A stretch of DNA of 64,000 bases, taken from NCBI GenBank assembly GCA_050949175.1, contig JBMNFG010000010.1, positions 222,186 to 286,185 of the forward strand, given 5' to 3'. Every line of letters begins with the position of its first letter. Positions within the stretch are counted from its first letter, which is position 1. This DNA is from Bacillota bacterium. GTDB lineage: Bacteria > Bacillota > SHA-98 > UBA4971. The notes under the pieces were generated by a model. It saw only the letters and a program-made list of their open reading frames with translations, made no database searches and was not told where the DNA came from. Below are positions 33,290 to 54,441 of this stretch, piece by piece. The position numbers were made by a program, and so were the translations under genes.

Positions 33290-34267
33290 TCACGTCAGGA
33301 AAGACGGTGCTACATAAGGCAGGAAGTACAAAGCCAGCGTGACTGCAAGAAGATCTCCGGAACCGCCGGGACTGATGCCGAGAGAGGTAAACTCCTTATC
33401 CATAAGAAGAATGCTACATCTTCCGTCTTCAGTGAGCATGCCGCCTTGCGATAAAGCCAGCCTTGCTCGCGGTTTTACAACGTCTTCCAGGGTTTCAACA
33501 GACGATCTATGAACCACGCAGGTATCGTCCAGATTAGCCATTATCGAGATCAGAGAGTGTACCATGGCATCGTTCAGTGAAAGGCCGCACTTGAGGGTTT
33601 TCTCCAGTGCAGGTAATCCGTGGTGAAAGACTGTAGGAAACCCTGCTTCAGCCTCGCCTCTTGCCCCTGTTAACCCGTGCATCATGTAGATACGCTCTCC
33701 GTTAGAAAGATGCCGAGGATCGGCTTTGACACGTCTTAAGCCAAGAAGGTCTCGCTCGACTATTCCGCAGGTTATGGCCTGTACTGTCCGGGTTGTTTGA
33801 AACCTGTCAGGTACTCCGCCGCCGGCAATGATGTACCCGGTAGATGCAGCTATCAACCCTAGACTGAATATTGCCCCTTTATGGGTATTCACGCCTCCGG
33901 TAGCCTCGTACATTCTAGCTTCCGCTTGAACCCCGATCGACCTCACCTTGTCCAGTAACCCGTGCACCGGTCCTGTATGGCCCATTCCTACCTCTGCCAT
34001 GGCAGCAAAACTCGGACCTATTGCAATAGCACTCCTGACAAGAGTCAGATAGTCCATGTCATCATGTGCACCAGAGCTAGTCATATCAACCAGCCCGGGC
34101 GCAGGTGTGCAAGATGCCTCGAGAATCAGGGCGAGAAGCAATACTTCGCCTATCCTTTGAGCCTCAGGCGAGATCTGTTCATAGTAGGTCTTCGCGCCTT
34201 GCCAGCTTAACTTCGCGGATTCCTTTGACAAGGATAGTATCTCTGCCTGATAAGAGCTCACGGCCAT
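33290..34267 (-). CDS. mdcB: triphosphoribosyl-dephospho-CoA synthase (MdcB/MadG) for the malonate decarboxylase ACP prosthetic group
   Basis: TPAPGLVD, VNTHKGAIFSLGL and GISPGGSGDLLA motifs. The start is uncertain: ATG 34267 or GTG 34282. Either overlaps mdcG by about 90-100 nt. Confidence 0.85.
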   Translation of the reverse strand: MAVSSYQAEILSLSKESAKLSWQGAKTYYEQISPEAQRIGEVLLLALILEASCTPAPGLVDMTSSGAHDDMDYLTLVRSAIAIGPSFAAMAEVGMGHTGPVHGLLDKVRSIGVQAEARMYEATGGVNTHKGAIFSLGLIAASTGYIIAGGGVPDRFQTTRTVQAITCGIVERDLLGLRRVKADPRHLSNGERIYMMHGLTGARGEAEAGFPTVFHHGLPALEKTLKCGLSLNDAMVHSLISIMANLDDTCVVHRSSVETLEDVVKPRARLALSQGGMLTEDGRCSILLMDKEFTSLGISPGGSGDLLAVTLALYFLPYVAPSFLT

Positions 34268-34964
34268 TAACTCCCCACCCACCTTTTAGCTGAACTTCTA
34301 CATCTATTCGTACGGCGAAGCTCTTCTCAAGTGCGTCAGCCAACTCAACGATGCGAGAGACTTCGTCTATGGAAACTCGTGCTACAACAACGTCTAGGTC
34401 AGAAATGCCGTCAGTGTACGGCAGCCCTGTATATATCTCCAGAGCACCCGAACCCCATACCCCAAACGCAATCTCCTCCCGCACTCTCTCTTTCATGACA
34501 GACAGTGCAGCTAACGCCGGGGTCCTTGGCACAACAGGAAGCCTTGCAACCTCCTGTGGAGTAATCCGCTTTGAAACAAATCGACGGTGAAGGACACACG
34601 GAATCCTTATCCTTCTTGATTCAGGCATAAACGGAATGACGAAGCCTACTGCAACGAAACCATCCATCGTACAGTCGCCGTATATCTCACGTGCAGAATC
34701 CATATCGCCATCGGTGAACCTTCTGACAATGCCGGGAAGGTGGACTCCGTTGCACCCATGTTCAAGCACGTGCTTGCAGTAGCGCCTGGCAGAAGGTGAA
34801 GGCCATGAGTCGACCTTCAGCAGACTCTTTATATCCCAAACGTACTGCGATAAATGCTTTCGGCCTTCCGGGGAGATTTCCACCAGGTCGTGCCTGGTAA
34901 ACTCATTGGATATCCCAACTTCTTGCAGAGGGTTCACCTCCTCTTCGTATATGCCGGATCCCAT
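34179..34964 (-). CDS. mdcG: phosphoribosyl-dephospho-CoA transferase (holo-ACP synthase MdcG type)
   Basis: FGVWGSGALEIYTGLPYTDGISDLDVVV nucleotidyltransferase signature. Its position is next to mdcB. Confidence 0.8.
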   Translation of the reverse strand: MGSGIYEEEVNPLQEVGISNEFTRHDLVEISPEGRKHLSQYVWDIKSLLKVDSWPSPSARRYCKHVLEHGCNGVHLPGIVRRFTDGDMDSAREIYGDCTMDGFVAVGFVIPFMPESRRIRIPCVLHRRFVSKRITPQEVARLPVVPRTPALAALSVMKERVREEIAFGVWGSGALEIYTGLPYTDGISDLDVVVARVSIDEVSRIVELADALEKSFAVRIDVEVQLKGGWGVNGRELLSGRDTILVKGIREVKLARREDLL

Positions 34965-36073
34965 ACCTTCTCTGTCTCATATTTAACCTGCGCTTCACTG
35001 AGAACATCGAAAAGCCTAGTCTTCTCCGGGCCCTCGATGAGAGCAGTAATACTTGGCTCAACGCCTGACGACGCGCTTTCACATACAGACAGAGACAGCT
35101 TCAAAAGAGTCCTCTCCGACTTGACCTTAACGTCCGGGGCGCATTTCACAATCCTCGCTTTTGTCCTCAAAATCGTTCTTGCGACTCTGTGCACCACCTC
35201 AGCATTGGGTAGAGGTGATTCGAGGACACATACTTCAAAATCAGGATACGTCCTCACGCGCCTGTAAGTTATGATTCTACCTTCTTTGTTCAGGACATGT
35301 CCTTTGGAACTGACAGGGAAGGAATCTGACATCGGAAGTCCGCCTACTACAAGCTCGCAATACTCTCCTCCTGCAGGAGACTTCACAAGTGAAATATCAT
35401 CCCTCAGCGGGACTCCGTCCATAGTAAGCCACCCGAACTCCTGACACCCGTAGAGATCATGGACTCTCGCACCCAAAAGCTCCTCTGCAACCGGAATAAG
35501 CTCAAGATCCATTGGAGTCCCTGCGACAAATATGGAGGTCACAGCAGGAAGGTGCCCGCCAATACCCAGCTTTTTTGCATCCTCCAAAGCATATCTAATG
35601 AATGTTGATTCCCCGACGATGAAGTCAGGCTTGTTTTCCAGAACCGCGAGAAGAAAAGCATCCCTCGTTGAACGTTGGAGAAAGCCGACGCTAATCCCCA
35701 GTTTTTGAAGGGCCTCCCACGGAAACACCAAGACCAAGGGGGGATATGTGAACAATGCCTTTGCGCCGCGCTTGATTCCCGCTCGCTCAAATGCAAGCAA
35801 GGATGCCTTGATTCTGTCGGGGATCTCACTTGAGGTGACACCGACTACGTTTTGAAAGGCAGTGGAACCTGTGGTAAACGATATATACGCATAATTCAAC
35901 GGAGTATGGACTTCTTCGATAACGTGGGCAGCGGTCGGTCCGTTTGCCCCTTTATCAACCAGGGTTCTCCTGGGCATTTCTTGAATGGTAGGAGCCTGGC
36001 CGGCAGTGGCTACGCCGGCTCTCAGTATTTCAAGGACCTGCTCCAGCTCAAACTCAGGGCGTAAATCCATCAT
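34934..36073 (-). CDS. adenylate-forming ligase (PaaK / F390-synthetase-like); candidate ACP-SH:acetate ligase (MadH-equivalent)
   Basis: FTTGSTAFQ (degenerate TSGTTG AMP motif) and DLYGCQEFGW. The gene sits where madH sits in the Malonomonas cluster. The functional assignment is by position only. Confidence 0.5.
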   Translation of the reverse strand: MMDLRPEFELEQVLEILRAGVATAGQAPTIQEMPRRTLVDKGANGPTAAHVIEEVHTPLNYAYISFTTGSTAFQNVVGVTSSEIPDRIKASLLAFERAGIKRGAKALFTYPPLVLVFPWEALQKLGISVGFLQRSTRDAFLLAVLENKPDFIVGESTFIRYALEDAKKLGIGGHLPAVTSIFVAGTPMDLELIPVAEELLGARVHDLYGCQEFGWLTMDGVPLRDDISLVKSPAGGEYCELVVGGLPMSDSFPVSSKGHVLNKEGRIITYRRVRTYPDFEVCVLESPLPNAEVVHRVARTILRTKARIVKCAPDVKVKSERTLLKLSLSVCESASSGVEPSITALIEGPEKTRLFDVLSEAQVKYETEKVWDPAYTKRR

Positions 36074-36953
36074 CCTCCCCTCCAAGCCAGCTGGAAAGTG
36101 CCAGATTAAACTCCTCTTCCATGAGCTCGATGACTTTCTCCGAGGTCTTTCTACCACCACGCTTAATACCTGACATCAGCCTGGACCAGGGACCTACTTT
36201 GTCATATTCGCCCGCTGCTTTCAGCCTTCGGATCTCATCTATTTGAGCCTTTACACGTGGCCGCATGTCTGCAACTGACTCTATGATTTCATCAACCCCA
36301 CCCAGGTTATAGAAGTGTGAGACTCCTGACGCAAACACCGGATTGCCCTCTGAAAGCTCTTCCAGAAGCATAATATTGATCTTCGTTACCCTGGCAATAC
36401 CCACCAGCGGCATTACATGGACCATAGTCCCGAACTCGTCAGAAAGTGCGAGGATCCTGTCTGCCTGAAGGCCGTGACAGAGGAACCCCCCGCTTATAGC
36501 TCTCCCAACAACCATTGCAACAATGGGATGGCCTGCTCTTCTTGCTTCTGCTGAAGCCAGCTGGTATGCACCTGTCGATTTGTAAATGCCTATGATTTCC
36601 TCAACTTTACCGGGGCTCATTCCCGGGGTATCGACTACCAGAATGATAGGCCTTTTCTCTGCTAGAGGCTTGTCTTTATCTGCTTTAATAGTCAAGTAGA
36701 CGGCATGGGCCATCTTGAAGCCTTCTTCAAGCCCCATGAGGCCTGCATAAACCATTCTGAAACGAGGGTTTGCAATCCCTGCGTCATTTGCAATAACAGT
36801 CACTGTCTCCCCTGACAGAGTGGCACTTCCCACCACCGCTGATTCCGCCCATTCAGGGTCAAGGGTCTCTCCTCCACAGAGGTTCTCTTCGAAAGAGCCT
36901 TCGTCAACTATGTAATCAATCGCATCGCGTCCCCTGCCAAAGAAGTTAATCAT
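36054..36953 (-). CDS. madD: malonate decarboxylase carboxyltransferase subunit (MadD / MdcE-like)
   Basis: AcCoA-carboxylase carboxyltransferase-alpha-like fold with IVAMVVGRAISGGFLCHGLQADRILAL. ATG at 36953 follows GGGGGAGGG and overlaps the madC stop by 8 nt. Confidence 0.85.
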   Translation of the reverse strand: MINFFGRGRDAIDYIVDEGSFEENLCGGETLDPEWAESAVVGSATLSGETVTVIANDAGIANPRFRMVYAGLMGLEEGFKMAHAVYLTIKADKDKPLAEKRPIILVVDTPGMSPGKVEEIIGIYKSTGAYQLASAEARRAGHPIVAMVVGRAISGGFLCHGLQADRILALSDEFGTMVHVMPLVGIARVTKINIMLLEELSEGNPVFASGVSHFYNLGGVDEIIESVADMRPRVKAQIDEIRRLKAAGEYDKVGPWSRLMSGIKRGGRKTSEKVIELMEEEFNLALSSWLGGEDDGFTP

Positions 36954-37926
36954 TATCTCCAACCCTCCCCCTGGGCCAGCGCCGGGCATTTGCCTCAAAT
37001 TCTGAGACATTGGAATCCCAGAGATACTCAATGTCTTCGTTACCAAACTGCCTCCAGAGATCCCAGGAGTCCTGGATTCTGTCGTTTGCAGCCAGGTCTA
37101 CAAGGCGCATCTGTTCCAGCACCATCTCTCCGGTGCCTATGATCCTTTTAGACGCTATCTTTTCAATGGGCCAACTTGCAACTTCGGCAACTTTTTCCCT
37201 AAATGCCTTCATTGTGTCTTCTACAATGAAATCCGCATCACGTGTGATGAACCTATGCCTACCTCCGGTTGTCCGCCATACCAAAGCCCGGTTGGCAGCA
37301 TCAAATTCCTCAGTCCCCACCACTTCTTCGATAACTCCGGGCCCTGTCAAGCCCAGCCTTCCTACATCACTCATGATGAGCACATCGACAGACGCTGCTA
37401 CAAAGCCCATTCCTCCGAAGCAGCCTACAGTGCCTCCGACAATTCCAATAATAGGCACTTTGCCTCTTGCTGCCTGGAATGCATCCATCACCTCAGAATG
37501 AGCCAAGAGGCCTGCGTTGGCTTCTTGAAGCCTTACTCCGCCTGTGTCAAAGGAAATCACTACTGCAACCCGGCCTCTGCTTTCAGAGGATTTGCTTCGT
37601 GACTCCAAAATCTCTTGTCCGCGCAAGGCAAGGCGGATGGCCATAACCATTTTCGTGCCGTGGGCTTCACCGACGCCTCCGCCTAAGAACTTGCTTTCTT
37701 GAGACACGACGACGGCGGGAGCTTTACCCACCGTTCCTAAACCTACAACTACCCCGTCATCAAACTGGGGGGTCTGGCCCATAGGAGGTAGATGGGGACT
37801 CGTCAATTTCAGCCTGGGACCTAACAGTTCAGTGAAACTTTCCGGATTACAGATGGCATACGCTCTTTCTCTCGCATTGAGTCTTGAAAAAGGCTGGTTC
37901 TGCAGCAGATTCCATCTATCGTCCAT
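36946..37926 (-). CDS. madC: malonate decarboxylase carboxyltransferase subunit (MadC / MdcD-like)
   Basis: Carboxyltransferase-beta-like. Motifs are VVVSQESKFLGGGVGEAHGTKM and FDTGGVRLQEANAGL. ATG at 37926 follows GGAGGTGG. Confidence 0.85.
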   Translation of the reverse strand: MDDRWNLLQNQPFSRLNARERAYAICNPESFTELLGPRLKLTSPHLPPMGQTPQFDDGVVVGLGTVGKAPAVVVSQESKFLGGGVGEAHGTKMVMAIRLALRGQEILESRSKSSESRGRVAVVISFDTGGVRLQEANAGLLAHSEVMDAFQAARGKVPIIGIVGGTVGCFGGMGFVAASVDVLIMSDVGRLGLTGPGVIEEVVGTEEFDAANRALVWRTTGGRHRFITRDADFIVEDTMKAFREKVAEVASWPIEKIASKRIIGTGEMVLEQMRLVDLAANDRIQDSWDLWRQFGNEDIEYLWDSNVSEFEANARRWPRGRVGDND

Positions 37927-37948
37927 ACGCAATAGCCACCTCCATGTA

Positions 37949-38281
37949 TTACCCGGATTTCTCTCGCGACATTTCTTTTGCCAGTTGCGCAAGTCTCAGC
38001 TTGACTACTGCCGGGGTGGCTCCGTCATCATTTATCCAGATTTCGCATGCACGCACTTTATGGGTGGCCATAAACTCATCGATAACCATCTGCCAGACGC
38101 TTCCAAACCCTACAGCACTGGTAGTAACGTGGAACTTAGTAACACCGGGCTCATGCGGCATTGGCTCTGCCAGAATCTCGAGGTCCCCGGACATTACATG
38201 TCCGATATGGATATACTCCCAGTCACGTTTACCTTTTTCAGCCGGTCCTAGATATTCAAATTCTAAACGTTCCAGAGCCAC
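37949..38281 (-). CDS. madE: malonate decarboxylase acyl carrier protein (MadE / MdcC)
   Basis: 110 aa. HVMSGDLEILAEP contains the prosthetic-group serine context (SGDLE). Confidence 0.9.
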   Translation of the reverse strand: MALERLEFEYLGPAEKGKRDWEYIHIGHVMSGDLEILAEPMPHEPGVTKFHVTTSAVGFGSVWQMVIDEFMATHKVRACEIWINDDGATPAVVKLRLAQLAKEMSREKSG

Positions 38282-38317
38282 GGCAATCCCCCTTCTCGGT
38301 GCGCATACCTGTCTGTT

Positions 38318-40000
38318 CTACCATTCCCTGAACCTGTCCGGAGGACGGTAAAGCCCGCCTGACCATTCCACCAAGTCTCTTATGGAGCGAGCTGCAAGAA
38401 GTGAAGTGTTTGCCTCTCCAACATCGATACCTAGATCTTCCGGAGTCTGGACTATTCCTTTACGTCTCAGCTCCAGAGTTTTCTTGGGATCAGCCTCTCT
38501 GCCCAACTCTGTGTACCCTGCTACAGCTTTGATAGCAGATTCTCGCTCCTCTAGCGAAGTACACTTAAGAAGGTGGGCTATTCCTTCCTCAGTAACCAGG
38601 TGTGTAACGGCATCGCCGTATACCATAATGGGTGGAATCGCAAAACCTGCTTCCTCCATAAGTGTCCATGCGTCCAGACGATGGACAAAGCTTGGAACAA
38701 GTCCTGCCCCAAAGGTCTCCACCATCTGAATGACTAATTTCTTTCCGCGCGGAACCGGCCCGATGAGCGAACTCGTTACAACGCTTTCTTTACCTGCCTT
38801 AAGCCAACTGGGAGAAGAGTGCCGCCTCCCCGGCGGATCGCATCCCATGTTCGGTGCACCGCCAAACCCTGCAATCCTGCCTGCAACCGCAGCAGAGCTG
38901 TTGCCGTACTTGTCAACCTGCAGAGTCGACCCTACAAAAGCATCAATGGCATAATGGCCCGCTACCTGACACATAGCCCTGTTTGACCTCATGCTTCCGT
39001 CAGGTCCTATAAAGAACACATCCGGACGGCTTGCCATGTAGTCTTCCATCCCTACTTCGGAACCGAATGAGTGGATGGACTCAACAAACCCGGTTTCAAT
39101 AGCAGGAATAAGGCTGGGATGCGGATTCACAGCCCAATGGGAGCAGACCTTGCCCTTAAGACCGAGGCTTTCTCCAAAGGTAGGAAGGAGCAATTCGATT
39201 GCGCAAGTCCCAAAGCCTATTCCGTGGTTTAAGGACTTTACTTCATATTCTTTGTAGATGCCCTTAATCACCATCATGGCCATGAGGACGTGCACATCTG
39301 TTATAAGCGCAGGATCCCTTGTGAAGAGAGGCTCAGTGTAGCAAGGCCTGCCCACCGGGACAAGAAAATCTACCCACTCAGCGGGAATATCAACCCGTGG
39401 CAACTTATCTATGACCCTCTCAACCTGTGCCACGACAATTCCCTGTCTGAACTTGGTGGCTTCAACAATCGTAGGTGTATCCTCCGTGTTCGGCCCGGTA
39501 TACAGATTGCCGGCCCCGTCCGCATAAATCGCGGTAATCAGCGCTACGTCCGGAGTAAGGTCAACGAAATAGCGGCCGAACAGTTCAAGGTAGGTGTGGA
39601 TCTCCCCGATCTTCATCTTACCTTCCTCCACCATCCGGGCCACTCTTGTACTCTGAGGAGCTGAGTATGAGAAATCGGCAAGCCGGGCTATTCCACGCTC
39701 AAAGATCTCACAGTGGGATGGTAGAGCAATGACTGACTGCACCATGTGAAGATCATTCACTCGATCCACGTCTACTCTGCATAAACACTCTGCCAGAAAG
39801 TCAGCTTGTTTTTGGTTATTTCCCTCAAGAGCTACCCTGTCACCCGGCCGAATCACAGCCTCTAACAGGGATACGCACTCATTAGGATTCACCACCTTGC
39901 TGCCTGGCTCAGATACAAACTGTTGTGCCTGACGCAGCCTCTTCTGAAATTCTTCCTGCCTTCGTGTCCAGTCAGTCCTTCTCGAAGCCCTGTTTTCCAT
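38318..40000 (-). CDS. madA: malonate decarboxylase alpha subunit, acetyl-S-ACP:malonate ACP transferase (MadA / MdcA)
   Basis: 560 aa. Matches my memory of MdcA in LEGNNQKQADFL, GNLYTGPNTEDTP, LNHGIGFGTCAIELLLPTFGESLGLKGK, GSMRSNRAMCQVAG and GFGGAPNMG. Confidence 0.92.
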   Translation of the reverse strand: MENRASRRTDWTRRQEEFQKRLRQAQQFVSEPGSKVVNPNECVSLLEAVIRPGDRVALEGNNQKQADFLAECLCRVDVDRVNDLHMVQSVIALPSHCEIFERGIARLADFSYSAPQSTRVARMVEEGKMKIGEIHTYLELFGRYFVDLTPDVALITAIYADGAGNLYTGPNTEDTPTIVEATKFRQGIVVAQVERVIDKLPRVDIPAEWVDFLVPVGRPCYTEPLFTRDPALITDVHVLMAMMVIKGIYKEYEVKSLNHGIGFGTCAIELLLPTFGESLGLKGKVCSHWAVNPHPSLIPAIETGFVESIHSFGSEVGMEDYMASRPDVFFIGPDGSMRSNRAMCQVAGHYAIDAFVGSTLQVDKYGNSSAAVAGRIAGFGGAPNMGCDPPGRRHSSPSWLKAGKESVVTSSLIGPVPRGKKLVIQMVETFGAGLVPSFVHRLDAWTLMEEAGFAIPPIMVYGDAVTHLVTEEGIAHLLKCTSLEERESAIKAVAGYTELGREADPKKTLELRRKGIVQTPEDLGIDVGEANTSLLAARSIRDLVEWSGGLYRPPDRFREW

Positions 40001-40014
40001 ATTCTCAAGTCCCT

Positions 40015-40278
40015 CTATAGTTCTTCTAAGGTCATAAGGAGATCTCCGACTTTAACCATGTCCCCTGTAGTTGCATGGATCTCCACTACTTTTCCCTTCT
40101 TAGGTGCGAGTATCTGGTTTTGCATTTTCATAGCTTCGATAAACGCTACTTCCTGTCTTTCCTCAACAACATCTCCTACCCCGGGTAGGTCCGTATTTTT
40201 CATAGGGTGTTTACCGGGATGTATGGTAACCTGCCCGGGCAGCTTCGCTCTGATTTCAACCAAGTTTCCGTTTGCCAT
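40015..40278 (-). CDS. madF: biotin carrier protein of malonate decarboxylase (MadF type)
   Basis: 87 aa lipoyl/biotinyl domain with the biotinylation motif EAMKM. Confidence 0.9.
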   Translation of the reverse strand: MANGNLVEIRAKLPGQVTIHPGKHPMKNTDLPGVGDVVEERQEVAFIEAMKMQNQILAPKKGKVVEIHATTGDMVKVGDLLMTLEEL

Positions 40279-40318
40279 ATAAAACTACACCTCCTAGAGA
40301 TTCGTAACAGCTGGCTAA

Positions 40319-41458: not shown

Positions 41459-41498
41459 AAGCTAATGCCCGTTACTCGCCCAGAACACCTACTCAATC

Positions 41499-41615: not shown

Positions 41616-41657
41616 AACCTCACCCCCACTGCGTTTACCAACTGAAAACCATGAACG

Positions 41658-42686: not shown

Positions 42687-42695
42687 TTATTCCAC

Positions 42696-43481: not shown

Positions 43482-43520
43482 TTTGTCTCATCCTCCTCAA
43501 GAGATCTTTTTTACTAAGTC

Positions 43521-46507: not shown

Positions 46508-47361
46508 CCATACCTCCTTTGCCAGTCTAGGGCAAGGTAAATGCCTAGCCCTATGTCATAGCCGGACGTAGCACCTACCGAAAGCAACCTGGCTACCGCA
46601 TCCCTTGCTTCACCCGGTTTTCCCGTGAGCACGCAAAACAAGGCTCTTTCAACGGTTTCATGAGCGCATCCTTCCAGTGCCCGCTTGATGAAGAATGCAC
46701 TTAGGTCGGATGTCCTGCCAAGGTTCTTTCTGACACAGGCCTCCCATATGCCGTCTCTATCTCGTCCAGGCACTCGAAAGACACTTCTTGTCAGACTCAT
46801 TCCAAGGACCAGATCATCGCCGCTGGGAGTAAGACCGGGTCCGAACCCGATTATTCCGGCCAAAGCCGAATCCAAACCTTTAGCGTCGTTCTCAAGCAGA
46901 GACGTTCTGATTTCTTCAATGATCCCGCCTGACACATCGAAAGCCAGGTCACGATGTTTTGAAGTCAGGGCCTGTTCCAGGACTGCCAAGTTCTCTTCCT
47001 TTATTAGGTGCAGACAATTAACCGCCTCAAGGGGACTGCTCCACCTCCGGCTGTCACTGAAATCTATGACAGCCTTTTTCCCAAGCCGCAGGCTGGAGGA
47101 GGTAGGCGCAATTACTGTGTCGTCAATAGATACACCTAAGGTGAGAAACGAGAAATCTCCTGATACAGCTACTGTAGCAGCGTCGCGTCCGCATCCTCGT
47201 GCCAACGGAAGAACAGTCAAGAACTCTGATCCGGCTACAAGGTTGATTGCATGAGTAAACACGCTGTGCACCCTAAATGTATCCCGGTGCTTAAAGATAA
47301 GTTCAAATTCCCTACCGTGATTGACTGCAGCCAGATAAAACGATTGTTCGTACATTTCCAT
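46486..47361 (-). CDS. DUF2877 protein (YlbF-like)
   Basis: 291 aa with GFGPGLTPSGDDLVLG. It is translationally coupled to fdrA (22-nt overlap). The family call is from memory. Confidence 0.6.
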   Translation of the reverse strand: MEMYEQSFYLAAVNHGREFELIFKHRDTFRVHSVFTHAINLVAGSEFLTVLPLARGCGRDAATVAVSGDFSFLTLGVSIDDTVIAPTSSSLRLGKKAVIDFSDSRRWSSPLEAVNCLHLIKEENLAVLEQALTSKHRDLAFDVSGGIIEEIRTSLLENDAKGLDSALAGIIGFGPGLTPSGDDLVLGMSLTRSVFRVPGRDRDGIWEACVRKNLGRTSDLSAFFIKRALEGCAHETVERALFCVLTGKPGEARDAVARLLSVGATSGYDIGLGIYLALDWQRRYGWCSRGW

Positions 47362-47513
47362 GTCAGTGTCATTATTCCAAACTGCAGTGTTGTAAACCTT
47401 TATGAAATGACTATAAAGTTTAGCCGTTTATTATGTTAAAAAGTATCAGTTTATTAGGAAAAACCAGGCAGCAAAGGGACTATGAGGACTCGGATACTAC
47501 GTGGAATAGCGAA

Positions 47514-49217: not shown

Positions 49218-49403
49218 GTGAAACCCTCCATGAACCACCGGCAGTTAGTAACGAATCTCCGGATATGTTATCGCGATATTCTCTTTTTTCTATCTTTGTT
49301 TAGATTCGCCATATGTTCCCTGAATTCCTTTAATAAGTACAACAAAGGGGGCTTTGTTCAAGCCCCCTCACTACTGTATCAAACAGCTAAAGATGAACCG
49401 GGA

Positions 49404-50660
49404 TTATTCGCTGCCTTCAGATCCTGATTCTGACCTCGGCAGGACCTGGTTGAGGATTATACCTATTATGGCTGCAAGGCCCATTCCTCCAAACTGGAGG
49501 TTGCCCCATATCTGGATCATAGCGCCTCCGATACCTACAACCAGGATTACACTGGCAATAAACAAGTTCCTTGAATCCTTCAAGTCAACGTTGTTCTCTA
49601 CCATGGTTCTAACGCCAATAGCTGCGATCATACCAAAGAGTACAATAGATATTCCTCCGATGACCGGGTCAGGAATCGTCCTGATAGCTGCACCGAGCTT
49701 ATCAACGAACGCAAGTAAAATGGCGATTACTGCGGCTATCCTCATCACTTCAGGCTTCCAGACTTTCGTCAAAGCCAACACACCTGTGTTCTCTGAATAA
49801 GTTGTGTTAGCAGGTCCACCGAACAAGCCTGCAAGGGATGTAGCAACACCGTCTCCAAGAAGAGTCCTGGGAAGGCCTGGGTCTGCTACAAAGTCCTCTT
49901 CAACAGTTGCACCTACAGCCAGAATATCTCCTACATGCTCCACCATACTGGCAAAGGCTGCGGGGGCGATGATCCCAATGGCAGCAGCATCAAACACCGG
50001 CAATGTAAATCTCGGAACTCCTATCCATGCTGCTTGAGCCACCGGTGTCGGATCAACATTACCTGTGATGAGACAGAGTATGTACCCCACGACAATTCCT
50101 GCAATAACCGGAAGCAACCTAAGGAAGCCTTTTACGTATAGGTTTACAATGGCAACTGTAGCAAGGACAATCAATGCAATAGGCCAGTTCTGGCTTGCAC
50201 TTTCAATGGCCGTAGGTGCCAGGTTCAATCCTATTACCATAATGATAGGCCCTGTAATCACAGGCGGGAGTATACGCGGCATGAACTCAGGACCGAGAAA
50301 ATGGATGAGAATTCCGAAAGCTACGTAGAGAAGACCTGCTACAATGATTCCTCCCTGAGCTGCCGGAATTCCCTTCTCCGCCACAACCAATGCTACCGGT
50401 GCAATAAACGCGAAGGATGATCCCAAGAATACCGGCACTTTTCCTTTGGTGACAAGATGGAACCATAAAGTACCGATTCCTGCAGTGAACAAGGCTACGC
50501 TAACATCAAGGCCTGTCAGGAGTGGGACAAGAACTGTGGCGCCGAACATTGTAAAAGCGTGTTGAAGACCAAGTATGAGCGATTGCTCTGTAGACAGATA
50601 GTCTCCGGCTCTAATCGGCCCCGTAATCCTCGTGTTAACTGTTGGCTTGGTACTCGCCAT
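49404..50660 (-). CDS. NCS2-family nucleobase:cation symporter (uracil/xanthine permease)
   Basis: 418-aa polytopic protein. Motifs are LGLQHAFTMFGATVLVPLLTG and GPANTTYSENTGVLALTKV. Confidence 0.88.
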   Translation of the reverse strand: MASTKPTVNTRITGPIRAGDYLSTEQSLILGLQHAFTMFGATVLVPLLTGLDVSVALFTAGIGTLWFHLVTKGKVPVFLGSSFAFIAPVALVVAEKGIPAAQGGIIVAGLLYVAFGILIHFLGPEFMPRILPPVITGPIIMVIGLNLAPTAIESASQNWPIALIVLATVAIVNLYVKGFLRLLPVIAGIVVGYILCLITGNVDPTPVAQAAWIGVPRFTLPVFDAAAIGIIAPAAFASMVEHVGDILAVGATVEEDFVADPGLPRTLLGDGVATSLAGLFGGPANTTYSENTGVLALTKVWKPEVMRIAAVIAILLAFVDKLGAAIRTIPDPVIGGISIVLFGMIAAIGVRTMVENNVDLKDSRNLFIASVILVVGIGGAMIQIWGNLQFGGMGLAAIIGIILNQVLPRSESGSEGSE

Positions 50661-50708: not shown

Positions 50709-53057
50709 TCAGCGATCGGATGCACTAGCTCTCTCTTTAAGCGCCCAATACACCTTTTCCGATGTCATGGGTAATGTCGTCAGCCTTATGCCTGCTGCAT
50801 GATACAGCGCGTTGGCAATAGCAGGAGGCGTTGGTACCATGACATGCTCCCCTATACCTCTGGCTCCGTACGGTCCGTCTTCTTGAGGAACCTCTACGAA
50901 GTCAACGAGCAACTCACCAGGTATATCGGCTGCAGTTGATATCTTATAATCAATATACGACGGATTCAAGAGTTTTCCTTGCTCGTCGAATTTAAGTTCC
51001 TCAAGTAAGCCTATACTTATACCCTGCACTACACCTCCTTCCACTTGCGTACTGGCAGTGATTGGGTTTATGACCCGTCCGGCATCGTACACTGCAACAA
51101 CTTTGAGGACATCTATTTTTCCGGTCTCAACATCAAGCTCAATCTCTACAGCTTGAGCTCCATAGGTCCAGTTGGCTACCGGTTTCTCACTCTGTCCGGT
51201 CTCAGGATCCATAGCGCTAATCCCTTCAGGGATGAATTTCCCTCTTCCTATTATAGGCCCACCATAGCCGCTGTAGTCAGGGAGGGTGACACCCAGCGAC
51301 AATTGACCTATGTGGACAGACCGCTTAGGATCGCTCTTTACAAAAACCATACTGTCTGCAATGTCGATGTCTTCAACAGGGACTCCGAAGTACTTTGAAG
51401 CATGATCCAGGACCTGGCGTCTGGCATCTTGGGCTGCAGCCATGACTGCTCTGCCACAGGAGAACGTAATCCTGCTGGCTACAGTCTGCCATTCATAGGC
51501 ACTTGTATCTGTATCAACAGGCAGAACCTTTACATCTTCGTATCTGACTCCGAGTTCATTGGCTGCTATCTGGGCTAAGGCTGTAAACGAGCCTTGTCCG
51601 AGTTCCTGGGCACCAATGCTCAAGTACACAGTTCCATCATCATTCACCTTGATGAGAGCTGAGGATGCGGCATCATTGGGCATGGCAGGGGCTTTGGTCA
51701 TGCAAGCGATTCCCTTTGCCCTGACCTTCTTTGTGCCCGGTTTGACAACGCCGGGGCCGGTAACCTCTTCCCAACCGATGAGTTCCACAGCTTTCTCAAG
51801 GCATTGCTCGATGCCTGGGTTGCGAAGCACCTGACCTGTTGCGTTTGTGGAGCCGTCCCTTTGCAGGTTGACCCTGCGGACCTCGACCGGATCCATTCCC
51901 AGTTCATGAGCAATCCTGTCTATGTGCTGCTCCATTGCCCAGTGGTTCTCACCGTGGCCGAATCCCCTTAGCGGGCCGCCCACGGGCTTGTTTGTGTATA
52001 CGCAATATGAATCCGTCTTCATATTAGGTATGTCATACACACCGGATGAGCTGTATCCCGCTGCTCTTGTCACGTTTACTCCATACTCCGTATACGCGCC
52101 TGCATCCCAGTACATCTCGAACTCCTGGGCAGTGATTCTGCCGTTGCGTTTTACGCCGGTCTTGAGACGGCATAACATTCCCTGCCTGACAAAGGTGTCT
52201 CTGAATTCCTCTTCCCTTGTACATACCAGCTTAACCGGTCTGCCTTTGCATTTCATCGCAAGGGGCACCAGAGTAGCCTCAACGTTGAGGCCGGCTTTGC
52301 CGCCGAAACCCCCGCCGACGTACGGCGCGATAACCCTTACCTTATTCATGGGTATACCCAGGCTCTGGCTTAAGATGCTGCGCATTGCAAAGGGAGACTG
52401 AGAACTTGCCCACATTGTCAGCTTGCAGTTGTGATCATAGAGAGCTATTGCAGCATGAGGCTCGATAGGTGAATGCTGAATATGAGGGACCCAGTACTCA
52501 CCTTCAACTATCAGGTCTGCCTCAGCAAATCCCTTTTCAAGATCGCCTTTGCGTATTCTAAAATGGTTGCTTATGTTGGTGTGGGGTACAGGGTAGAAAG
52601 CAGGGCCAATCTCATACGTATGAAGGTCAGGGTGGACAAGGCAGGCGTCGGGTTTTATCGCTTCTCTGATGTCCAGCACACAGGGAAGCTCTTCATATTC
52701 GACTTCTATCAGTTCTAGGGCTTTTTCCGCAACCTCCACAGACTCAGCTGCGACACCTGCAACAGGTTCTCCGTAGTAGCGCACTTTGTCAATGGCATAA
52801 GGTGTACGGTCTTTCAAGTAAAGCCCCATCCTATACGGAAAATCCTTCCCTGTGACAACAGCCTTTACACCAGGCAGTTCCTGTGCTTTACTTGTATCAA
52901 TCCGTACAATACGCGCATGCGCATAAGGACTTCTCAAAAGCTTAACATACAGCATTCCGGGAAACTTCAGATCTCCTGCATAACGTGCGGCCCCGGTCAC
53001 CTTTTCCAATGCGTCGTTTCGCCTGACGCCTACACCGATATAGGCTTCGCGTGCCAC
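50709..53057 (-). CDS. xanthine dehydrogenase / aldehyde oxidase family molybdopterin-binding large subunit
   Basis: 782 aa with the a/b hammerhead and Mo-binding domains (GGGFGGK, GPLRGFG, ARGIGE). Confidence 0.9.
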   Translation of the reverse strand: MAREAYIGVGVRRNDALEKVTGAARYAGDLKFPGMLYVKLLRSPYAHARIVRIDTSKAQELPGVKAVVTGKDFPYRMGLYLKDRTPYAIDKVRYYGEPVAGVAAESVEVAEKALELIEVEYEELPCVLDIREAIKPDACLVHPDLHTYEIGPAFYPVPHTNISNHFRIRKGDLEKGFAEADLIVEGEYWVPHIQHSPIEPHAAIALYDHNCKLTMWASSQSPFAMRSILSQSLGIPMNKVRVIAPYVGGGFGGKAGLNVEATLVPLAMKCKGRPVKLVCTREEEFRDTFVRQGMLCRLKTGVKRNGRITAQEFEMYWDAGAYTEYGVNVTRAAGYSSSGVYDIPNMKTDSYCVYTNKPVGGPLRGFGHGENHWAMEQHIDRIAHELGMDPVEVRRVNLQRDGSTNATGQVLRNPGIEQCLEKAVELIGWEEVTGPGVVKPGTKKVRAKGIACMTKAPAMPNDAASSALIKVNDDGTVYLSIGAQELGQGSFTALAQIAANELGVRYEDVKVLPVDTDTSAYEWQTVASRITFSCGRAVMAAAQDARRQVLDHASKYFGVPVEDIDIADSMVFVKSDPKRSVHIGQLSLGVTLPDYSGYGGPIIGRGKFIPEGISAMDPETGQSEKPVANWTYGAQAVEIELDVETGKIDVLKVVAVYDAGRVINPITASTQVEGGVVQGISIGLLEELKFDEQGKLLNPSYIDYKISTAADIPGELLVDFVEVPQEDGPYGARGIGEHVMVPTPPAIANALYHAAGIRLTTLPMTSEKVYWALKERASASDR

Positions 53058-53548
53058 TATCCCTCACTCCCCTTTTCCTGGGAATCGGAGCTTCCTGCAA
53101 CCTGCATTATTGCGTCGACTATACGAGCATACCCTGTGCACCTGCACAGATTCCCGCTTATCGCCTGAACAACTTCATCCCGAGTAGGGTTCGGGTTTCG
53201 CATTAGGAAGCCTTTGGCTGTCATGACTATCCCCGGCGTGCAGTACCCGCATTGAAGTGCGCTGTTATCGACTATACTCTCCTGGATCGGATCGAGGCGG
53301 CCCTCATCGCAAATGCCTTCTACAGTAAGCACTTCTTTACCGTCGGCTTCCACAGCCAGCATCAGGCATGAGTTCACAGGCACACCGTCTACCAGGACTG
53401 TGCAGGCTCCGCATTCTCCTTTTCCGCATCCCTCTTTGGCACCTGTCAAATCCAACTCTTCCCGGAGGAAGTCTAACAGTCTCATATGGGAGGATACTTC
53501 TGCTTCAACACGACAACCATTAACCGTCATCTTTATCTTGTGCATCAC
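53057..53548 (-). CDS. (2Fe-2S)-binding small subunit of the molybdenum hydroxylase
   Basis: GCGKGECGACTVLVDG and QCGYCTPG cluster motifs. Confidence 0.93.
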   Translation of the reverse strand: MMHKIKMTVNGCRVEAEVSSHMRLLDFLREELDLTGAKEGCGKGECGACTVLVDGVPVNSCLMLAVEADGKEVLTVEGICDEGRLDPIQESIVDNSALQCGYCTPGIVMTAKGFLMRNPNPTRDEVVQAISGNLCRCTGYARIVDAIMQVAGSSDSQEKGSEG

Positions 53549-53556
53549 AGCTCACT

Positions 53557-54441
53557 TCACCTCCTAAGTGCTGCAAGGCCTGAAAGAGCTCGCTCGATAG
53601 CGTTTCTGGTCAAGACTTCTGTCATTTCAAGGCGATAGTCCTTGCTTCCTCTTAGGTCACTGATAGGCTTGACTTGCTCCCTTGCAATAGATGCAGCGTG
53701 AGCTATTGATTCTTCGTCTTTGCTGTCTCTTAGGACAGCCTCAGCTTCTCTCGCTCTTATAGGAGTAGGCGCTACCGCTCCAAGAGCAATACGGACTTCT
53801 CCGTTTGCCAAGGCCAGGCAGGCTACACCTACGATGGATAAGTCCAAGGCATTAGTTCTGCCTAGTTTCAGATACACACCGTATGATTGCACATCATTCT
53901 TGGGAAGCCAGATCTTATACAAGAATTCGCCCTGTTCAAGGACGGTCTGACCCGGCCCGACGAAGAACTCGTCCATAGGAATACGCCTGGATCCATTAGG
54001 CCCCCATGTCTCGACTTCAGCCTCATAGACTAACAATGCAGGAGCAGTATCAGCAGCAGGAGAAGCATTACATATGTTTCCGCCGATTGTCGCCCGGTTT
54101 CTGATTTGGAATGCTGCTACAGAATGGGCCCCCTGCGCCAACGCTCCGTACTCTTTTTGAATAAACTCATCTCCGGCAATGGCATTCATTGGTGTTGCTG
54201 CACCTATGGAGAGGCCTTCCCCATTCCCGTACTCTATTCCGTTGATTCCTTCGATTGGCTTGAGGTCTATCACTGTCTTCGGCTTCAGTTTTCTGTCATG
54301 GATAAGAACAAACAGATCTGTTCCGCCTGCGAGGAACCTGCCGGCAGCCCCTGCTTCAGCGGCAAGCCTAACAGCATCCTCACGAGTTTCGGCACGTACA
54401 TAATCGAAAGGTAACAGCACCGGTCGCCCTCCCTTCAACAT
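53557..54441 (-). CDS. FAD-binding medium subunit (CoxM/XdhB type)
   Basis: FLAGGTDL and IGGNICNASPAAD motifs. Confidence 0.88.
   Translation of the reverse strand: MLKGGRPVLLPFDYVRAETREDAVRLAAEAGAAGRFLAGGTDLFVLIHDRKLKPKTVIDLKPIEGINGIEYGNGEGLSIGAATPMNAIAGDEFIQKEYGALAQGAHSVAAFQIRNRATIGGNICNASPAADTAPALLVYEAEVETWGPNGSRRIPMDEFFVGPGQTVLEQGEFLYKIWLPKNDVQSYGVYLKLGRTNALDLSIVGVACLALANGEVRIALGAVAPTPIRAREAEAVLRDSKDEESIAHAASIAREQVKPISDLRGSKDYRLEMTEVLTRNAIERALSGLAALRR

Follow-up and report, generated by a model that had tools for sequence, protein, structure and literature searches.

A candidate gene block for anaerobic, energy-conserving conversion of uracil to acetate in a Bacillota bacterium

Introduction

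Why does a single-strand gene block in an uncultured anaerobic Bacillota bacterium place a molybdenum hydroxylase, a nucleobase permease and a carbamoyltransferase-like trio directly before the genes of a Na+-pumping malonate decarboxylase? The block lies within a 64-kb stretch of DNA, referred to here as the window. The original prediction was a route from uracil to acetate, an interpretation that comparative genomics supports, and we consider it fairly likely that the block encodes an anaerobic, energy-conserving oxidative pyrimidine pathway. Gene content, homology, operon anatomy and co-occurrence across genomes were observed directly.

Results

Block layout and transcription units

ORF calls and translations placed all genes in 33290-54441 on the minus strand, and translations with Pfam scans bore out the family assignments first given to them. 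The limits of the block were likewise as predicted, with the following boundary and internal signals:

54665-54684, minus strand: intrinsic-terminator-like hairpin that ends the upstream Lpd-like gene; upper boundary
49345-49369, minus strand: strong terminator-like hairpin, 3' of the permease gene and before PucR
47410-47439, minus strand: sigma-70-like promoter candidate 5' of AllH, within the 152 nt that separate AllH from PucR
33179-33254, plus strand: tRNA-His (ARAGORN, Rfam); lower boundary

The upper hairpin has an 8-bp stem with six GC pairs and a T-rich tail. The block had been described as unbroken, but it is divided by the PucR gene and by the hairpin at 49345-49369, which had been missed; this GC-rich hairpin has a 10-bp stem (six GC pairs) and a U-rich tail, and folds at -26.6 kcal/mol (z = -3.1). 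Because of this hairpin and the promoter-like site before AllH (hexamer matches 10/12), the block is predicted to form at least three transcription units, namely XDH-permease, PucR, and AllH through CitG. The separation of the XDH-permease unit weighs against a single pathway. In the last unit the gaps do not exceed about 60 nt, and it holds 16 ORFs and not 15 because a conserved 38-amino-acid membrane ORF fills the 199-nt M42-madB gap that had been taken as empty. The absence of a terminator hairpin here stood, as both remaining gaps fold no better than shuffled sequence. GC content does not change from module to module, and the M42 and mad modules appear to be joined without a break.

This arrangement bears on the alternative that two unrelated operons are simply neighbours with no shared function, one an ordinary malonate-fermentation mad operon and the other a purine/ureide module consisting of xanthine dehydrogenase, xanthine permease, PucR and oxamate carbamoyltransferase. 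Default annotations agree with such a division and PucR is classically a regulator of purine catabolism; however, the terminator-free, closely spaced M42-madB interval argues against it, and overall we regard it as unlikely.

Molybdenum hydroxylase, permease and regulator

The upstream units contain five genes:

53557-54441, minus strand: XDH-family FAD subunit (Pfam FAD_binding_5 and CO_deh_flav_C)
53057-53548, minus strand: Mo-hydroxylase 2x[2Fe-2S] subunit (Pfam Fer2 and Fer2_2)
50709-53057, minus strand: Mo-hydroxylase molybdopterin subunit (Pfam Ald_Xan_dh_C, MoCoBD_1 and MoCoBD_2)
49404-50660, minus strand: NCS2 permease of uracil/pyrimidine type, by NCBIfam scores and identities
47514-49238, minus strand: PucR-family transcription regulator (Pfam PucR, GGDEF_2 and HTH_30)

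The FAD subunit (start at 54420 according to the gene caller; gene also called in L001) scored under every NCBIfam equivalog cut-off. The same was true of the molybdopterin (Mo) subunit, which reached 595 bits against XdhA where 780 are required; among solved structures it is closest to 4-hydroxybenzoyl-CoA reductase alpha. Unlike true xanthine dehydrogenases, which carry the xanthine-binding Glu802, the Mo subunit has Ala at the equivalent position while keeping the catalytic Glu, and cluster-linked Mo enzymes share this pattern (Ala in 34/36, catalytic Glu in 36/36). Its sequence sets the Mo subunit apart from canonical xanthine dehydrogenases, and we propose the enzyme as a candidate uracil (or thymine) C6-hydroxylase.

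NCBIfam scores for the permease were 375 bits for uracil permease, 331 for RutG and 220 for pbuX, and it is 40% identical to UraA and 41% to RutG, compared with 25-29% for XanQ/UacT, which carry xanthine and urate. It keeps the UraA residues F73, E241 and E290, with H245 replaced by Asp. Seven loci, from Sporomusa, Anaerospora, other Negativicutes, Neomoorella and Peptococcaceae, encode permeases that share 59-70% identity with E. coli UraA and have all four uracil-binding residues. By these measures, the module-associated permeases are uracil-type, not xanthine-type, which together with the lack of the xanthine-binding Glu again speaks against a separate purine operon. A PucR gene was present in 25/80 related loci.

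The same pathway logic could also apply to another substrate (thymine, giving methylmalonate and propionate; barbiturate; or another hydroxypyrimidine), or with the hydrolase roles swapped, and this we judge improbable. RutG-like carriers transport several pyrimidines, but the UraA-like carriers (up to 70% identity and an unaltered binding site) favour uracil.

AllFGH-like trio

The 16-ORF unit begins with three subunits:

46486-47361, minus strand: AllH-like subunit (DUF2877; Pfam AllH; 25% identity to E. coli YlbF)
44927-46507, minus strand: AllF/FdrA-like subunit (Pfam CoA_binding and Ligase_CoA; HMA_AllF_N)
43521-44939, minus strand: AllG-like subunit (DUF1116; Pfam AllG; 47% identity to E. 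coli YlbE)

AllF scored 471 bits for the NCBIfam FdrA subfamily (cut-off 433) and shares 37% identity with E. coli FdrA. Experiments have proven AllFGH to be an N-acylurea phosphorylase that forms carbamoyl phosphate, and the link from fdrA-ylbE-ylbF to oxamate carbamoyltransferase is correct (PMC11326118). By analogy, we propose AllF, AllG and AllH as a candidate N-malonylurea:phosphate carbamoyltransferase. As previously remarked, there is no carbamate kinase gene, and this holds across all 64 kb of the window, a point against the proposed pathway.

Oxalurate is the sole substrate known from a characterised AllFGH, which fits a different route in which a heterocycle yields oxalurate, AllFGH forms oxamate, an amidase releases oxalate for activation by a family III CoA-transferase, and the decarboxylases serve some other purpose. 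Oxamate would likewise require an amidase, and the CoA-transferase found in relatives scores best against CoA:oxalate CoA-transferase (392 bits, below the cut-off of 522). Against this, Pfam scans of the block showed allantoin genes allB, allC, allD and allE to be absent, a thiamine-dependent oxalyl-CoA decarboxylase was not recognised among the annotated neighbours, which comprised families found repeatedly in the surveyed loci, and uracil-type permeases fit a C4N2 ring yielding a C3 diacid. We consider the oxalurate route very unlikely.

Two hydrolases

Two metal-dependent hydrolases follow:

42696-43481, minus strand: cyclase-family (PF04199) metal-dependent amidohydrolase (Pfam Cyclase)
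41658-42686, minus strand: M42-family metallohydrolase (Pfam Peptidase_M42)

The cyclase translation contains an HxGTHxDxPxH motif, and its relatives in the PDB are kynurenine formamidase and isatin hydrolase. Between phyla the cyclase keeps 50-92% identity, and in most loci it adjoins AllFGH; we propose it as a candidate ring-opening barbiturate hydrolase. M42 falls far under all NCBIfam aminopeptidase cut-offs and is confined to loci of the mad clade (defined below), never alongside CN_hydrolase or AS amidase, which occupy its place in other species; it is a candidate malonamate amidohydrolase, the weakest of our assignments. That the cyclase would open the ring and M42 deamidate is the most economical reading. 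In the swapped version, M42 or another amidase opens the ring and the cyclase deamidates; however, the cyclase travels with the Mo enzyme even where AllFGH is absent, which fits ring opening straight after hydroxylation.

Malonate decarboxylase genes

The remainder of the unit comprises:

41499-41615, minus strand: conserved 38-amino-acid single-helix membrane ORF
40319-41458, minus strand: MadB-like carboxybiotin decarboxylase/Na+ pump beta subunit (Pfam OAD_beta, 514 bits)
40015-40278, minus strand: MadF-like biotin carrier protein (Pfam Biotin_lipoyl; EAMKM biotinylation motif in the translation)
38318-40000, minus strand: MadA/MdcA, acetyl-S-ACP:malonate ACP transferase (Pfam Mal_decarbox_Al, 907 bits)
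37949-38281, minus strand: malonate decarboxylase acyl carrier protein, MadE/MdcC (Pfam PF06857)
36946-37992, minus strand: carboxyltransferase MadC (Pfam Carboxyl_trans; called start 37926 in L001)
36054-37046, minus strand: carboxyltransferase MadD (Pfam MdcE and Carboxyl_trans; called start 36953)
34934-36160, minus strand: MadH-like ACP-SH:acetate ligase (weak Pfam AMP-binding; MadH_C PF27502; called start 36070)
34179-34964, minus strand: MdcG-like holo-ACP synthase (Pfam MdcG)
33290-34282, minus strand: CitG/MadG triphosphoribosyl-dephospho-CoA synthase (Pfam CitG, 254 bits); last gene of the block

The small ORF is conserved in every mad-clade locus (amino-acid identity 79-97%) and has an upstream GGGGGTGA ribosome-binding site; its match to OAD_gamma is weak (E = 0.047), and we take it as a probable small, OadG-like subunit of the Na+ pump. 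Inspection of start sites indicated TTG at 41437 as the likely MadB start. MadB scored 487 bits for NCBIfam Na_pump_decarbB, and 169 against the 597 bits required for the M. rubra-type MadB equivalog. MadA passed the malonate-specific mdcA equivalog cut-off (903 bits versus 789), which argues against oxalate as the diacid and also points to malonate, not methylmalonate. Stand-alone mad operons carry a MadLM, MatC or TRAP permease, whereas no malonate carrier is present in the block, a further difference from an independent malonate-fermentation operon.

Conservation of the module

A context survey anchored on AllG covered 80 species-representative genomes with close AllG homologues. AllF and the highly conserved cyclase nearly always adjoin these homologues, and the three-subunit Mo hydroxylase usually does. 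Neighbours were counted in those species-representative loci found with AllG that span 15 kb or more (n = 47): AllF was present in 46, the cyclase in at least 40 and the Mo subunit in 31. Exactly one amidase from three unrelated families (CN_hydrolase, AS amidase or M42) occurred in 23/47 and two in 0/47, while 16/47 held a malonate-activating gene, either CoA_transf_3 or MadA and never both. On this genomic evidence, AllFGH, cyclase and Mo hydroxylase are a conserved module across many phyla, with uracil-type permease, carbamate kinase, amidase and malonate-activating system as variable partners. Blocks of this kind are spread over many anaerobic phyla, and the cluster is present in several cultured strains, among them Alkaliphilus metalliredigens QYMF and Sporomusa rhizae DSM 16652.

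Carbamate kinase lies within the clusters of Carboxydothermus, Sporomusa, Neomoorella, Moorellaceae and Peptococcaceae loci (413 bits, arcC equivalog cut-off 358). In Carboxydothermus islandicus and two Sporomusa genomes, a CoA-transferase, mmdA-like carboxyltransferase, biotin carrier and OAD_beta protein are encoded between the amidase and XDH genes, by sequence a non-orthologous replacement of the decarboxylase. With this in-operon set, the module has a second, independent connection to malonyl-type thioester decarboxylation. Chance proximity of two operons is difficult to reconcile with an unrelated Na+-pumping decarboxylase and dicarboxylate CoA-transferase embedded in the module, and an mmdA-type enzyme, acting on malonyl- or methylmalonyl-CoA, counts against the oxalurate route. 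The 755-bit score of this carboxyltransferase to methylmalonyl-CoA decarboxylase alpha does favour a thymine-type substrate in the CoA-dependent variants. Riflebacteria loci, with AllF, AllG and cyclase and no XDH within 10 kb, also favour another substrate and suggest one that is already oxidised.

Co-occurrence of the module in other genomes was thus stronger than expected, but the mad linkage itself is found in one clade only. Mad and M42 accompany the module solely in the clade of the window (AllG identity of 86% or more), represented by six related loci from five species-representative genomes and metagenome contig L007, and the nearest non-mad relatives (L008 and L013) have the module without mad. 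Both observations fit two separate operons, and mad adjacency could be lineage-specific. Also weighing against the pathway, a single Thermotogota locus lacks AllFGH and carries cyclase-XDH next to an adenine-deaminase-like gene, and five loci encode dihydropyrimidinase, which belongs to the reductive route. In approximately ten loci an unknown protein, thiolase and DUF35 replace the amidase and CoA-transferase, an arrangement outside the model's account.

Discussion

We infer each substrate, each product and the assignment of hydrolases to steps from genomes. In the favoured uracil-to-acetate pathway, with PucR as regulator, the UraA/RutG-type permease would take in uracil, and possibly thymine, and the three-subunit Mo hydroxylase would oxidise C6 to give barbiturate, which the cyclase would open to N-malonylurea (ureidomalonate). 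The AllFGH-like complex would then convert N-malonylurea and phosphate to carbamoyl phosphate and malonamate, with a carbamate kinase encoded beyond the window forming ATP from carbamoyl phosphate. M42 would deamidate malonamate to malonate, and the biotin-dependent Mad complex would convert this to acetate with Na+ export. If correct, energy would be gained twice, as ATP from carbamoyl phosphate and as a sodium gradient from malonate decarboxylation. We found no published description of a uracil-to-acetate pathway in the literature. The E. coli enzyme, the sole characterised AllFGH, uses oxalurate, and its subunits are just 25-47% identical to those of the window; the predicted step on N-malonylurea would follow the same chemistry as its conversion of oxalurate to oxamate.

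Organisation of the block

Using ORF listing, translation and Pfam scans, we recovered all the genes named in the original prediction, at their predicted coordinates and on the minus strand.

Features of the block and its boundaries (coordinates, strand, identity; genes by ORF and Pfam match)
54665-54684: terminator-like hairpin, one block boundary
53557-54441, 53057-53548 and 50709-53057, minus: XDH-family molybdoenzyme, three subunits
49404-50660, minus: NCS2 permease
49345-49369, minus: perfect 10-bp GC-rich hairpin with U-rich tail, directly after the permease gene
47514-49238, minus: PucR
47410-47439: promoter-like site within a 152-nt gap flanking PucR
46486-47361, minus: AllH (DUF2877)
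44927-46507, minus: AllF (FdrA)
43521-44939, minus: AllG (DUF1116)
42696-43481, minus: PF04199 cyclase-family protein
41658-42686, minus: M42 metallohydrolase
41499-41615: 38-aa ORF with RBS and one hydrophobic helix, inside the 199-nt M42-madB interval
41458 to 33290, minus: complete biotin-type malonate decarboxylase set (OAD_beta, biotin carrier, MadA, ACP, MadC, MadD, MadH, MdcG, CitG)
33179-33254, plus: tRNA-His, other block boundary

These genes had been proposed to form one uninterrupted block, but the hairpin after the permease gene (-26.6 kcal/mol, z = -3.1 versus shuffled sequences), the gaps of 189 and 152 nt either side of PucR and the promoter-like site divide them into at least three transcription units. 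The tight run of ORFs predicted from AllH to CitG is present, although it comprises 16 ORFs with gaps of ~60 nt or less and not 15 with gaps of ~45 nt or less. Every related locus retains the 38-aa ORF (amino-acid identity 79-97%) amid diverging flanking DNA, and the ORF has a weak match to OAD_gamma (E = 0.047). A hidden terminator between M42 and madB was ruled out, as both residual short gaps fold no better than shuffled sequence, which agrees with the earlier reading that no hairpin terminator separates M42 from the mad genes. GC content is flat across the modules (0.48-0.52 in a GC and skew profile), and with no compositional break between them there is no sign of a recent insertion of the mad genes. 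We also considered a 281-aa ATG ORF on the plus strand (42486-43331), which is longer than the cyclase gene. It overlaps the cyclase and M42 genes in antisense and was rejected as an artefact that almost certainly encodes nothing.

An Rfam scan of the whole window identified no riboswitch or leader inside the block, so RNA gives no clue to the ligand; the matches were tRNA-His and a Moco riboswitch aptamer 4 kb away (29310-29429, plus; 62.7 bits, gathering score 36), located between a trigger-factor gene and FdhD. Downstream of this aptamer the plus strand offers no convincing gene, as the sole ORF (29540-29809) resembles noise, and with Moco-related genes close by the aptamer may act in antisense or be an orphaned regulator. 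Upstream of it, ORFs at 21328-29045 (minus) look by size and order like the housekeeping genes for trigger factor, ClpP, ClpX and Lon, with the translation inspected for trigger factor only. An FdhD/NarQ-family sulfurtransferase and a MobA-like nucleotidyltransferase (29909-31190, minus) are encoded 2-3 kb beyond tRNA-His and could serve molybdoenzyme maturation; in E. coli, MocA makes the cytidine dinucleotide cofactor for XDH-family enzymes. At 31178-32812 (minus) there is a second CitG-like gene in two ORFs, with 31178-31618 and 31676-32008 matching the C-terminal and N-terminal halves of PF01874, respectively. Next come a RimK/ATP-grasp fragment of 98 aa and one of the GHMP-kinase-N type of 179 aa, and the whole stretch gives the impression of a further cofactor-biosynthesis cluster in decay.

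Substrate clues from the permease and molybdenum hydroxylase

The window permease scored 375 bits against the uracil-permease model (cut-off 477), 331 against RutG and 220 against xanthine permease, and is 40-41% identical to E. coli UraA and RutG compared with 25-29% to XanQ and UacT. It retains three uracil-binding residues of UraA (F73, E241 and E290), with H245 replaced by Asp, and carries the Glu form of the NAT signature motif and not the Gln form. Cluster-linked permeases from seven other loci (Sporomusa, Anaerospora, other Negativicutes, Neomoorella and Peptococcaceae) are 59-70% identical to UraA and keep all of F73, E241, H245 and E290.

The Mo subunit of the XDH-family enzyme fell below all curated XdhA, PucD and XdhB equivalog thresholds (595 versus 780, 471 versus 784 and 317 versus 850 bits), and its closest solved relative is 4-hydroxybenzoyl-CoA reductase, not xanthine dehydrogenase. 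The residue directly after GGFGGK, a position that we take to correspond to the substrate-binding Glu802 of bovine XDH (the numbering is internally consistent), is Ala in the window enzyme and in 34 of 36 cluster-linked Mo enzymes. The catalytic Glu (bovine Glu1261) is present in all 36, as is the Arg of the FRGFG Mo-site motif, with the Phe of this motif in 34. E. coli XdhA was dropped as a reference for canonical xanthine dehydrogenase since it has Gln instead of Glu at the key position, and the Glu802 argument rests for this reason on the bovine sequence. Sub-threshold scores, Ala after GGFGGK and the invariant catalytic Glu together indicate that, judged by its sequence, the Mo enzyme is a hydroxylase though not a canonical purine one. 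YqeB-like or XdhC-like accessory genes lie beside the Mo enzyme at several AllG-anchored related loci in other genomes (hereafter L-numbers), namely L030, L044, L070 and L084 (e.g. L030:4860-5705) and L009, L015, L030 and L044. This hints that some cluster versions are selenium-dependent molybdenum hydroxylases; neither accessory gene was found in the window.

AllFGH, the cyclase-family protein and the amidase

AllF, AllG and AllH are adjacent in the order H-F-G with overlapping stop and start codons, and carry the domains HMA_AllF_N, CoA_binding and Ligase_CoA (AllF), PF06545 (AllG) and PF11392 (AllH), with AllF scoring 471 bits against the FdrA subfamily model (cut-off 433). Purified E. coli AllFGH interconverts oxalurate plus Pi and carbamoyl phosphate plus oxamate (Kim and Kim 2024, PMC11326118), and the current Pfam names of PF06545 and PF11392 are oxamate carbamoyltransferase subunit AllG/AllH; the link between fdrA-ylbE-ylbF and this activity, as given in the original prediction, is thus correct. 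Nonetheless, the window proteins are only 37% (AllF), 47% (AllG) and 25% (AllH) identical to those of E. coli, so specificity cannot be read from homology. There are no allantoin genes (allB/C/D/E) in the block and no carbamate kinase homologue within the 64-kb window, and probes for CoA-transferase, CN_hydrolase and mmdA-type carboxyltransferase matched nothing in the window besides mad paralogues.

The cyclase-family protein has a PF04199 domain score of 124.5 bits, and in its translation the metal-binding motif HxGTHxDxPxH is kept as HVGTHLDGPLH. Its PDB relatives are kynurenine formamidase and isatin hydrolase. Metal-dependent amidohydrolases belong to this family, among them isatin hydrolase, which opens a lactam. 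Databases name the cyclase-family protein just 'cyclase family protein' or 'kynurenine formamidase'. In a Thermotogota MAG (L099:7931-14566) a cyclase-family gene lies directly upstream of a three-subunit XDH with AllFGH absent within 10 kb and with a divergent adenine-deaminase-like gene alongside, and this pair may reflect a purine-related use.

Conservation of the cluster in other genomes

We scanned one genome per species (GTDB) with AllG, took the best 80 loci with a 10 kb flank on each side, probed these by tblastn with all window proteins and extra proteins from a Carboxydothermus locus, and clustered all locus ORFs, discarding several antisense ORF clusters from high-GC loci as spurious. 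Proteins identical to the window AllG occur on contigs of uncultured Bacillota MAGs, and homologues of 65-78% identity in Moorellaceae, Carboxydothermus, Peptococcaceae and others. Neighbour counts refer to the 47 loci that span 15 kb or more; those of carbamate kinase and OAD_beta refer to all 80.

Neighbours of AllG in the surveyed loci
AllF: 46 of 47
Cyclase-family protein: at least 40 of 47, 50-92% identical to that of the window; best-conserved partner
Mo subunit: 31 of 47
Permease: 21 of 47
PucR: 20 of 47
Exactly one amidase: 23 of 47 (10 nitrilase-superfamily CN_hydrolase, 9 amidase-signature, 4 M42; two together in none)
Malonate-activating function: 16 of 47 (12 family III CoA-transferase, 4 MadA; both in none)
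Carbamate kinase: 8 of 80
OAD_beta Na+ pump: 8 of 80

Counting by tblastn gave 12 loci in all with carbamate kinase, L009 included, and the Carboxydothermus protein scored 413 bits with the arcC equivalog model (cut-off 358). An amidase of the amidase-signature (AS) family was present at 12 related loci and absent from the window block. Four operons illustrate how the parts combine.

Representative operons
Sporomusa rhizae: CoA-transferase, permease, PucR, AllH, AllF, AllG, cyclase, carbamate kinase, CN_hydrolase, carboxyltransferase, OAD_beta, XDH
Peptococcaceae: PucR, AllHFG, CoA-transferase, cyclase, carbamate kinase, CN_hydrolase, XDH, permease
Ignavibacteria: dihydropyrimidinase, CoA-transferase, XDH, AllHFG, cyclase, AS amidase
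Alkaliphilus metalliredigens QYMF: XDH, permease, PucR, AllHFG, cyclase, CN_hydrolase, CoA-transferase

Clusters were detected in Bacillota, Negativicutes, Chloroflexota, Elusimicrobiota, Ignavibacteriota, Bacteroidota, Coriobacteriia, Caldisericota and Armatimonadota, while Riflebacteria, Thermotogota and Bathyarchaeia have incomplete versions. The co-occurrence anticipated by the original prediction therefore extends across phyla for AllFGH, cyclase and XDH, but not for mad itself, which is confined to the window's own clade. Cultured strains with the cluster are A. metalliredigens QYMF, S. rhizae, Anaerospora hongkongensis, Carboxydothermus islandicus and Neomoorella carbonis, making the hypothesis directly testable.

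Two further neighbours recurred. An equivalog-level dihydropyrimidinase (594 bits, cut-off 393) adjoins the module in five species (L076:1260-2642, L018, L059, L079 and L082), which again links the cluster to pyrimidines, via an enzyme of the reductive route. Inside AllFGH-cyclase-XDH operons of about ten species, one Bathyarchaeia MAG included, we also observed an unannotated protein of ~241 aa with no Pfam or NCBIfam match, usually followed by an SCP-x-type thiolase and DUF35 (L042:6817-7542, L077:7991-10220, L067:8331-9059, L040:1166-1894, L008:3380-5258 and L100:6276-8490). It never occurs together with the three amidases or the CoA-transferase, and with the thiolase and DUF35 looks like an alternative downstream branch.

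Malonate decarboxylase and putative sodium pump

MadA scored 903 bits against the NCBIfam mdcA equivalog (cut-off 789) and 907 bits against Pfam, and the dedicated ACP (PF06857), CitG/MadG (PF01874), MdcG (PF10620) and ACP-acetylating MadH (PF27502) are all present, along with the MadC/MadD carboxyltransferase pair and an 87-aa biotin carrier with an EAMKM motif. The membrane beta subunit scored 514 bits against OAD_beta and 487 bits against Na_pump_decarbB, compared with 169 against the Malonomonas rubra-type MadB equivalog (cut-off 597). In an assembly otherwise identical to the window (L005, ENA contig NODE_5_length_309462; coordinates of that locus), MadA (14940-16622) is called as a truncated 371-aa product and two short ORFs replace the permease gene (4280-5536), which is either assembly or frameshift error or strain-level gene decay.

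The malonate carrier MadL/MadM is absent from 33290-41658, where each ORF has another assignment. Stand-alone mad operons, with MadA homologues 64-75% identical, encode a carboxylate carrier, either MadL/MadM, MatC or a TRAP permease, with MadL/MadM itself found in a stand-alone Lachnospiraceae operon. Mad genes and M42 beside the module were found only in the window's clade (AllG at least 86% identical), at six further loci (L007, L010-L012, L026 and L073), and a linkage limited to one clade is weak evidence by itself. In C. islandicus and two Sporomusa genomes, the corresponding position between the amidase and XDH genes is taken by another decarboxylase set with a Na+ pump, for a malonyl-type thioester. 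Its parts are OAD_beta, OAD_gamma, a biotin carrier, a family III CoA-transferase and a carboxyltransferase of 512 aa that scores 755 bits with methylmalonyl-CoA decarboxylase alpha. Two non-homologous solutions for decarboxylation in one place within one conserved module constitute strong evidence that the upstream steps would release a C3 dicarboxylate, and the carrier-less block, unlike stand-alone mad operons, agrees with this.

The CoA-transferase of the relatives also bears on a pathway of oxalurate and oxalate in place of malonylurea and malonate, which we keep alive since the best match of this enzyme, below cut-off, is CoA:oxalate CoA-transferase; that pathway would nevertheless leave the decarboxylases unexplained, and oxalyl-CoA decarboxylase was not recognised among the recurrent neighbour families of the surveyed loci.

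Proposed pathway

For the malonylurea and malonate route, we propose that the cyclase-family hydrolase would open the ring, after hydroxylation and before phosphorolysis, a slot that fits its ties, the tightest of any partner, to AllFGH and, in the Thermotogota locus without AllFGH, to the Mo enzyme. N-malonylurea, an N-acylurea like its one-carbon homologue oxalurate, would then undergo AllFGH-type phosphorolysis to carbamoyl phosphate and malonamate, which would account for the amidase and carbamate kinase that travel with the module. Malonamate hydrolysis is assigned to M42, as this fills the amidase slot in the mad clade, and is the weakest assignment, while MadA, a malonate enzyme at equivalog level, would serve the malonate end of the pathway. 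Electrons from hydroxylation would require a sink, and many hosts are probably acetogens or hydrogen producers.

We consider a functional coupling of the malonate decarboxylase to the ureide module highly probable, and hold with moderate confidence, on independent comparative evidence, to the full scheme from uracil to acetate as written. The ~ten loci in which the 241-aa protein branch replaces both amidase and CoA-transferase count against this scheme and fall outside its explanation. Also weighing against it are the lack of a carbamate kinase in the window, the reductive-route dihydropyrimidinase at five loci and the one locus where cyclase-XDH stands beside an adenine-deaminase-like gene. 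Evenly balanced in our judgement is the broader reading of a widespread, modular anaerobic oxidation of uracil that conserves energy twice, as ATP via carbamoyl phosphate and as a Na+ gradient via malonate or malonyl-CoA decarboxylation, with new roles for the cyclase, AllFGH, three amidase families and the 241-aa/thiolase/DUF35 branch. As parts of that same reading, the cyclase-family protein would be a non-homologous barbiturase, most non-enterobacterial AllFGH homologues would be N-malonylurea phosphorylases, the M42, nitrilase-superfamily and amidase-signature proteins would be interchangeable malonamidases, and the unannotated protein with thiolase and DUF35 would be another downstream branch.

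To our knowledge only the reductive route of pyrimidine breakdown is known in strict anaerobes, and the oxidative route passes for a peculiarity of aerobes, with very little known of its genes. If true, the pathway would let many anaerobes, acetogens, syntrophs and digester organisms among them, grow on nucleobases while conserving energy at two steps. It would also supply the type of gene for uracil hydroxylation that has long been missing, and account for a malonate decarboxylase without a malonate transporter. The DUF1116/DUF2877/FdrA family, which is large and for the most part unannotated, would gain a function in physiology, as would a highly conserved cyclase-family protein. The full-text literature that we searched holds no description of the same pathway, although most subscription journals fell outside its scope and a prior description is possible; the reductive breakdown of uric acid described in a 2025 paper involves another cluster.

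Comparison with known systems

The block resembles three known kinds of system. In Rhodococcus erythropolis and other aerobic actinomycetes, the oxidative pyrimidine pathway consists of uracil/thymine dehydrogenase, barbiturase and ureidomalonase. The known barbiturase has the AtzD/cyanuric-acid-hydrolase fold, and in the known route ureidomalonate is hydrolysed to urea and malonate, aerobically and with no link to ATP or Na+ conservation. The proposed route would likewise begin with a hydroxylation and pass through the intermediates of the known one (uracil, barbiturate, N-malonylurea or ureidomalonate, and malonate). However, the candidate for ring opening here is a PF04199 cyclase-family hydrolase, and in place of urea release, phosphorolysis would take off the ureido group as carbamoyl phosphate, so that malonamate remains and an amidase is needed. 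In Pfam scans, no block protein matched an AtzD-fold barbiturase or an amidase-signature, urea-releasing ureidomalonase, and the block may work like the Rhodococcus pathway but is not built from its enzymes. The oxidative pathway of actinomycetes is cited in PMC4051656 and PMC3758960.

Compared with AllFGH and the carbamate kinase AllK of the anaerobic allantoin branch in E. coli (PMC11326118, PMC9843812), the window shares the three-subunit family and, as proposed, phosphorolysis of an N-acylurea, and its relatives also retain the association with a catabolic carbamate kinase. In contrast, the window module has no allB, allC, allD or allE neighbours and instead has a cyclase-family partner (as at most surveyed loci), usually with a Mo hydroxylase and uracil-type permease, and its predicted substrate is one carbon longer (malonyl versus oxalyl). 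Oxamate, the amide product, is excreted in E. coli, whereas malonamate here would be deamidated and decarboxylated.

The mad genes of Malonomonas rubra, according to Dimroth and co-workers, encode a Na+-translocating, biotin-dependent malonate decarboxylase, and the window has the same MadA, ACP, MadC/D, biotin carrier, MadH, CitG and MdcG, with a candidate for the membrane beta subunit. It differs in lacking the MadL/MadM carrier, in a beta subunit nearer to generic OAD_beta, in gene order, and in that its genes follow those for ureide degradation within one operon, an arrangement that implies an intracellular origin of the malonate. Likewise, Sporomusa malonica reportedly ferments malonate via malonyl-CoA, using a CoA-transferase and malonyl-CoA decarboxylase (Dehning and Schink), and this system and the methylmalonyl-CoA decarboxylase pumps resemble the Carboxydothermus and Sporomusa clusters with their CoA-transferase, mmdA-like protein, OAD_gamma, biotin carrier and OAD_beta. 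This variant does not occur in the window and is the functional counterpart of Mad in other lineages. The novelty of the block would lie in new assignments of enzyme function within known kinds of system.
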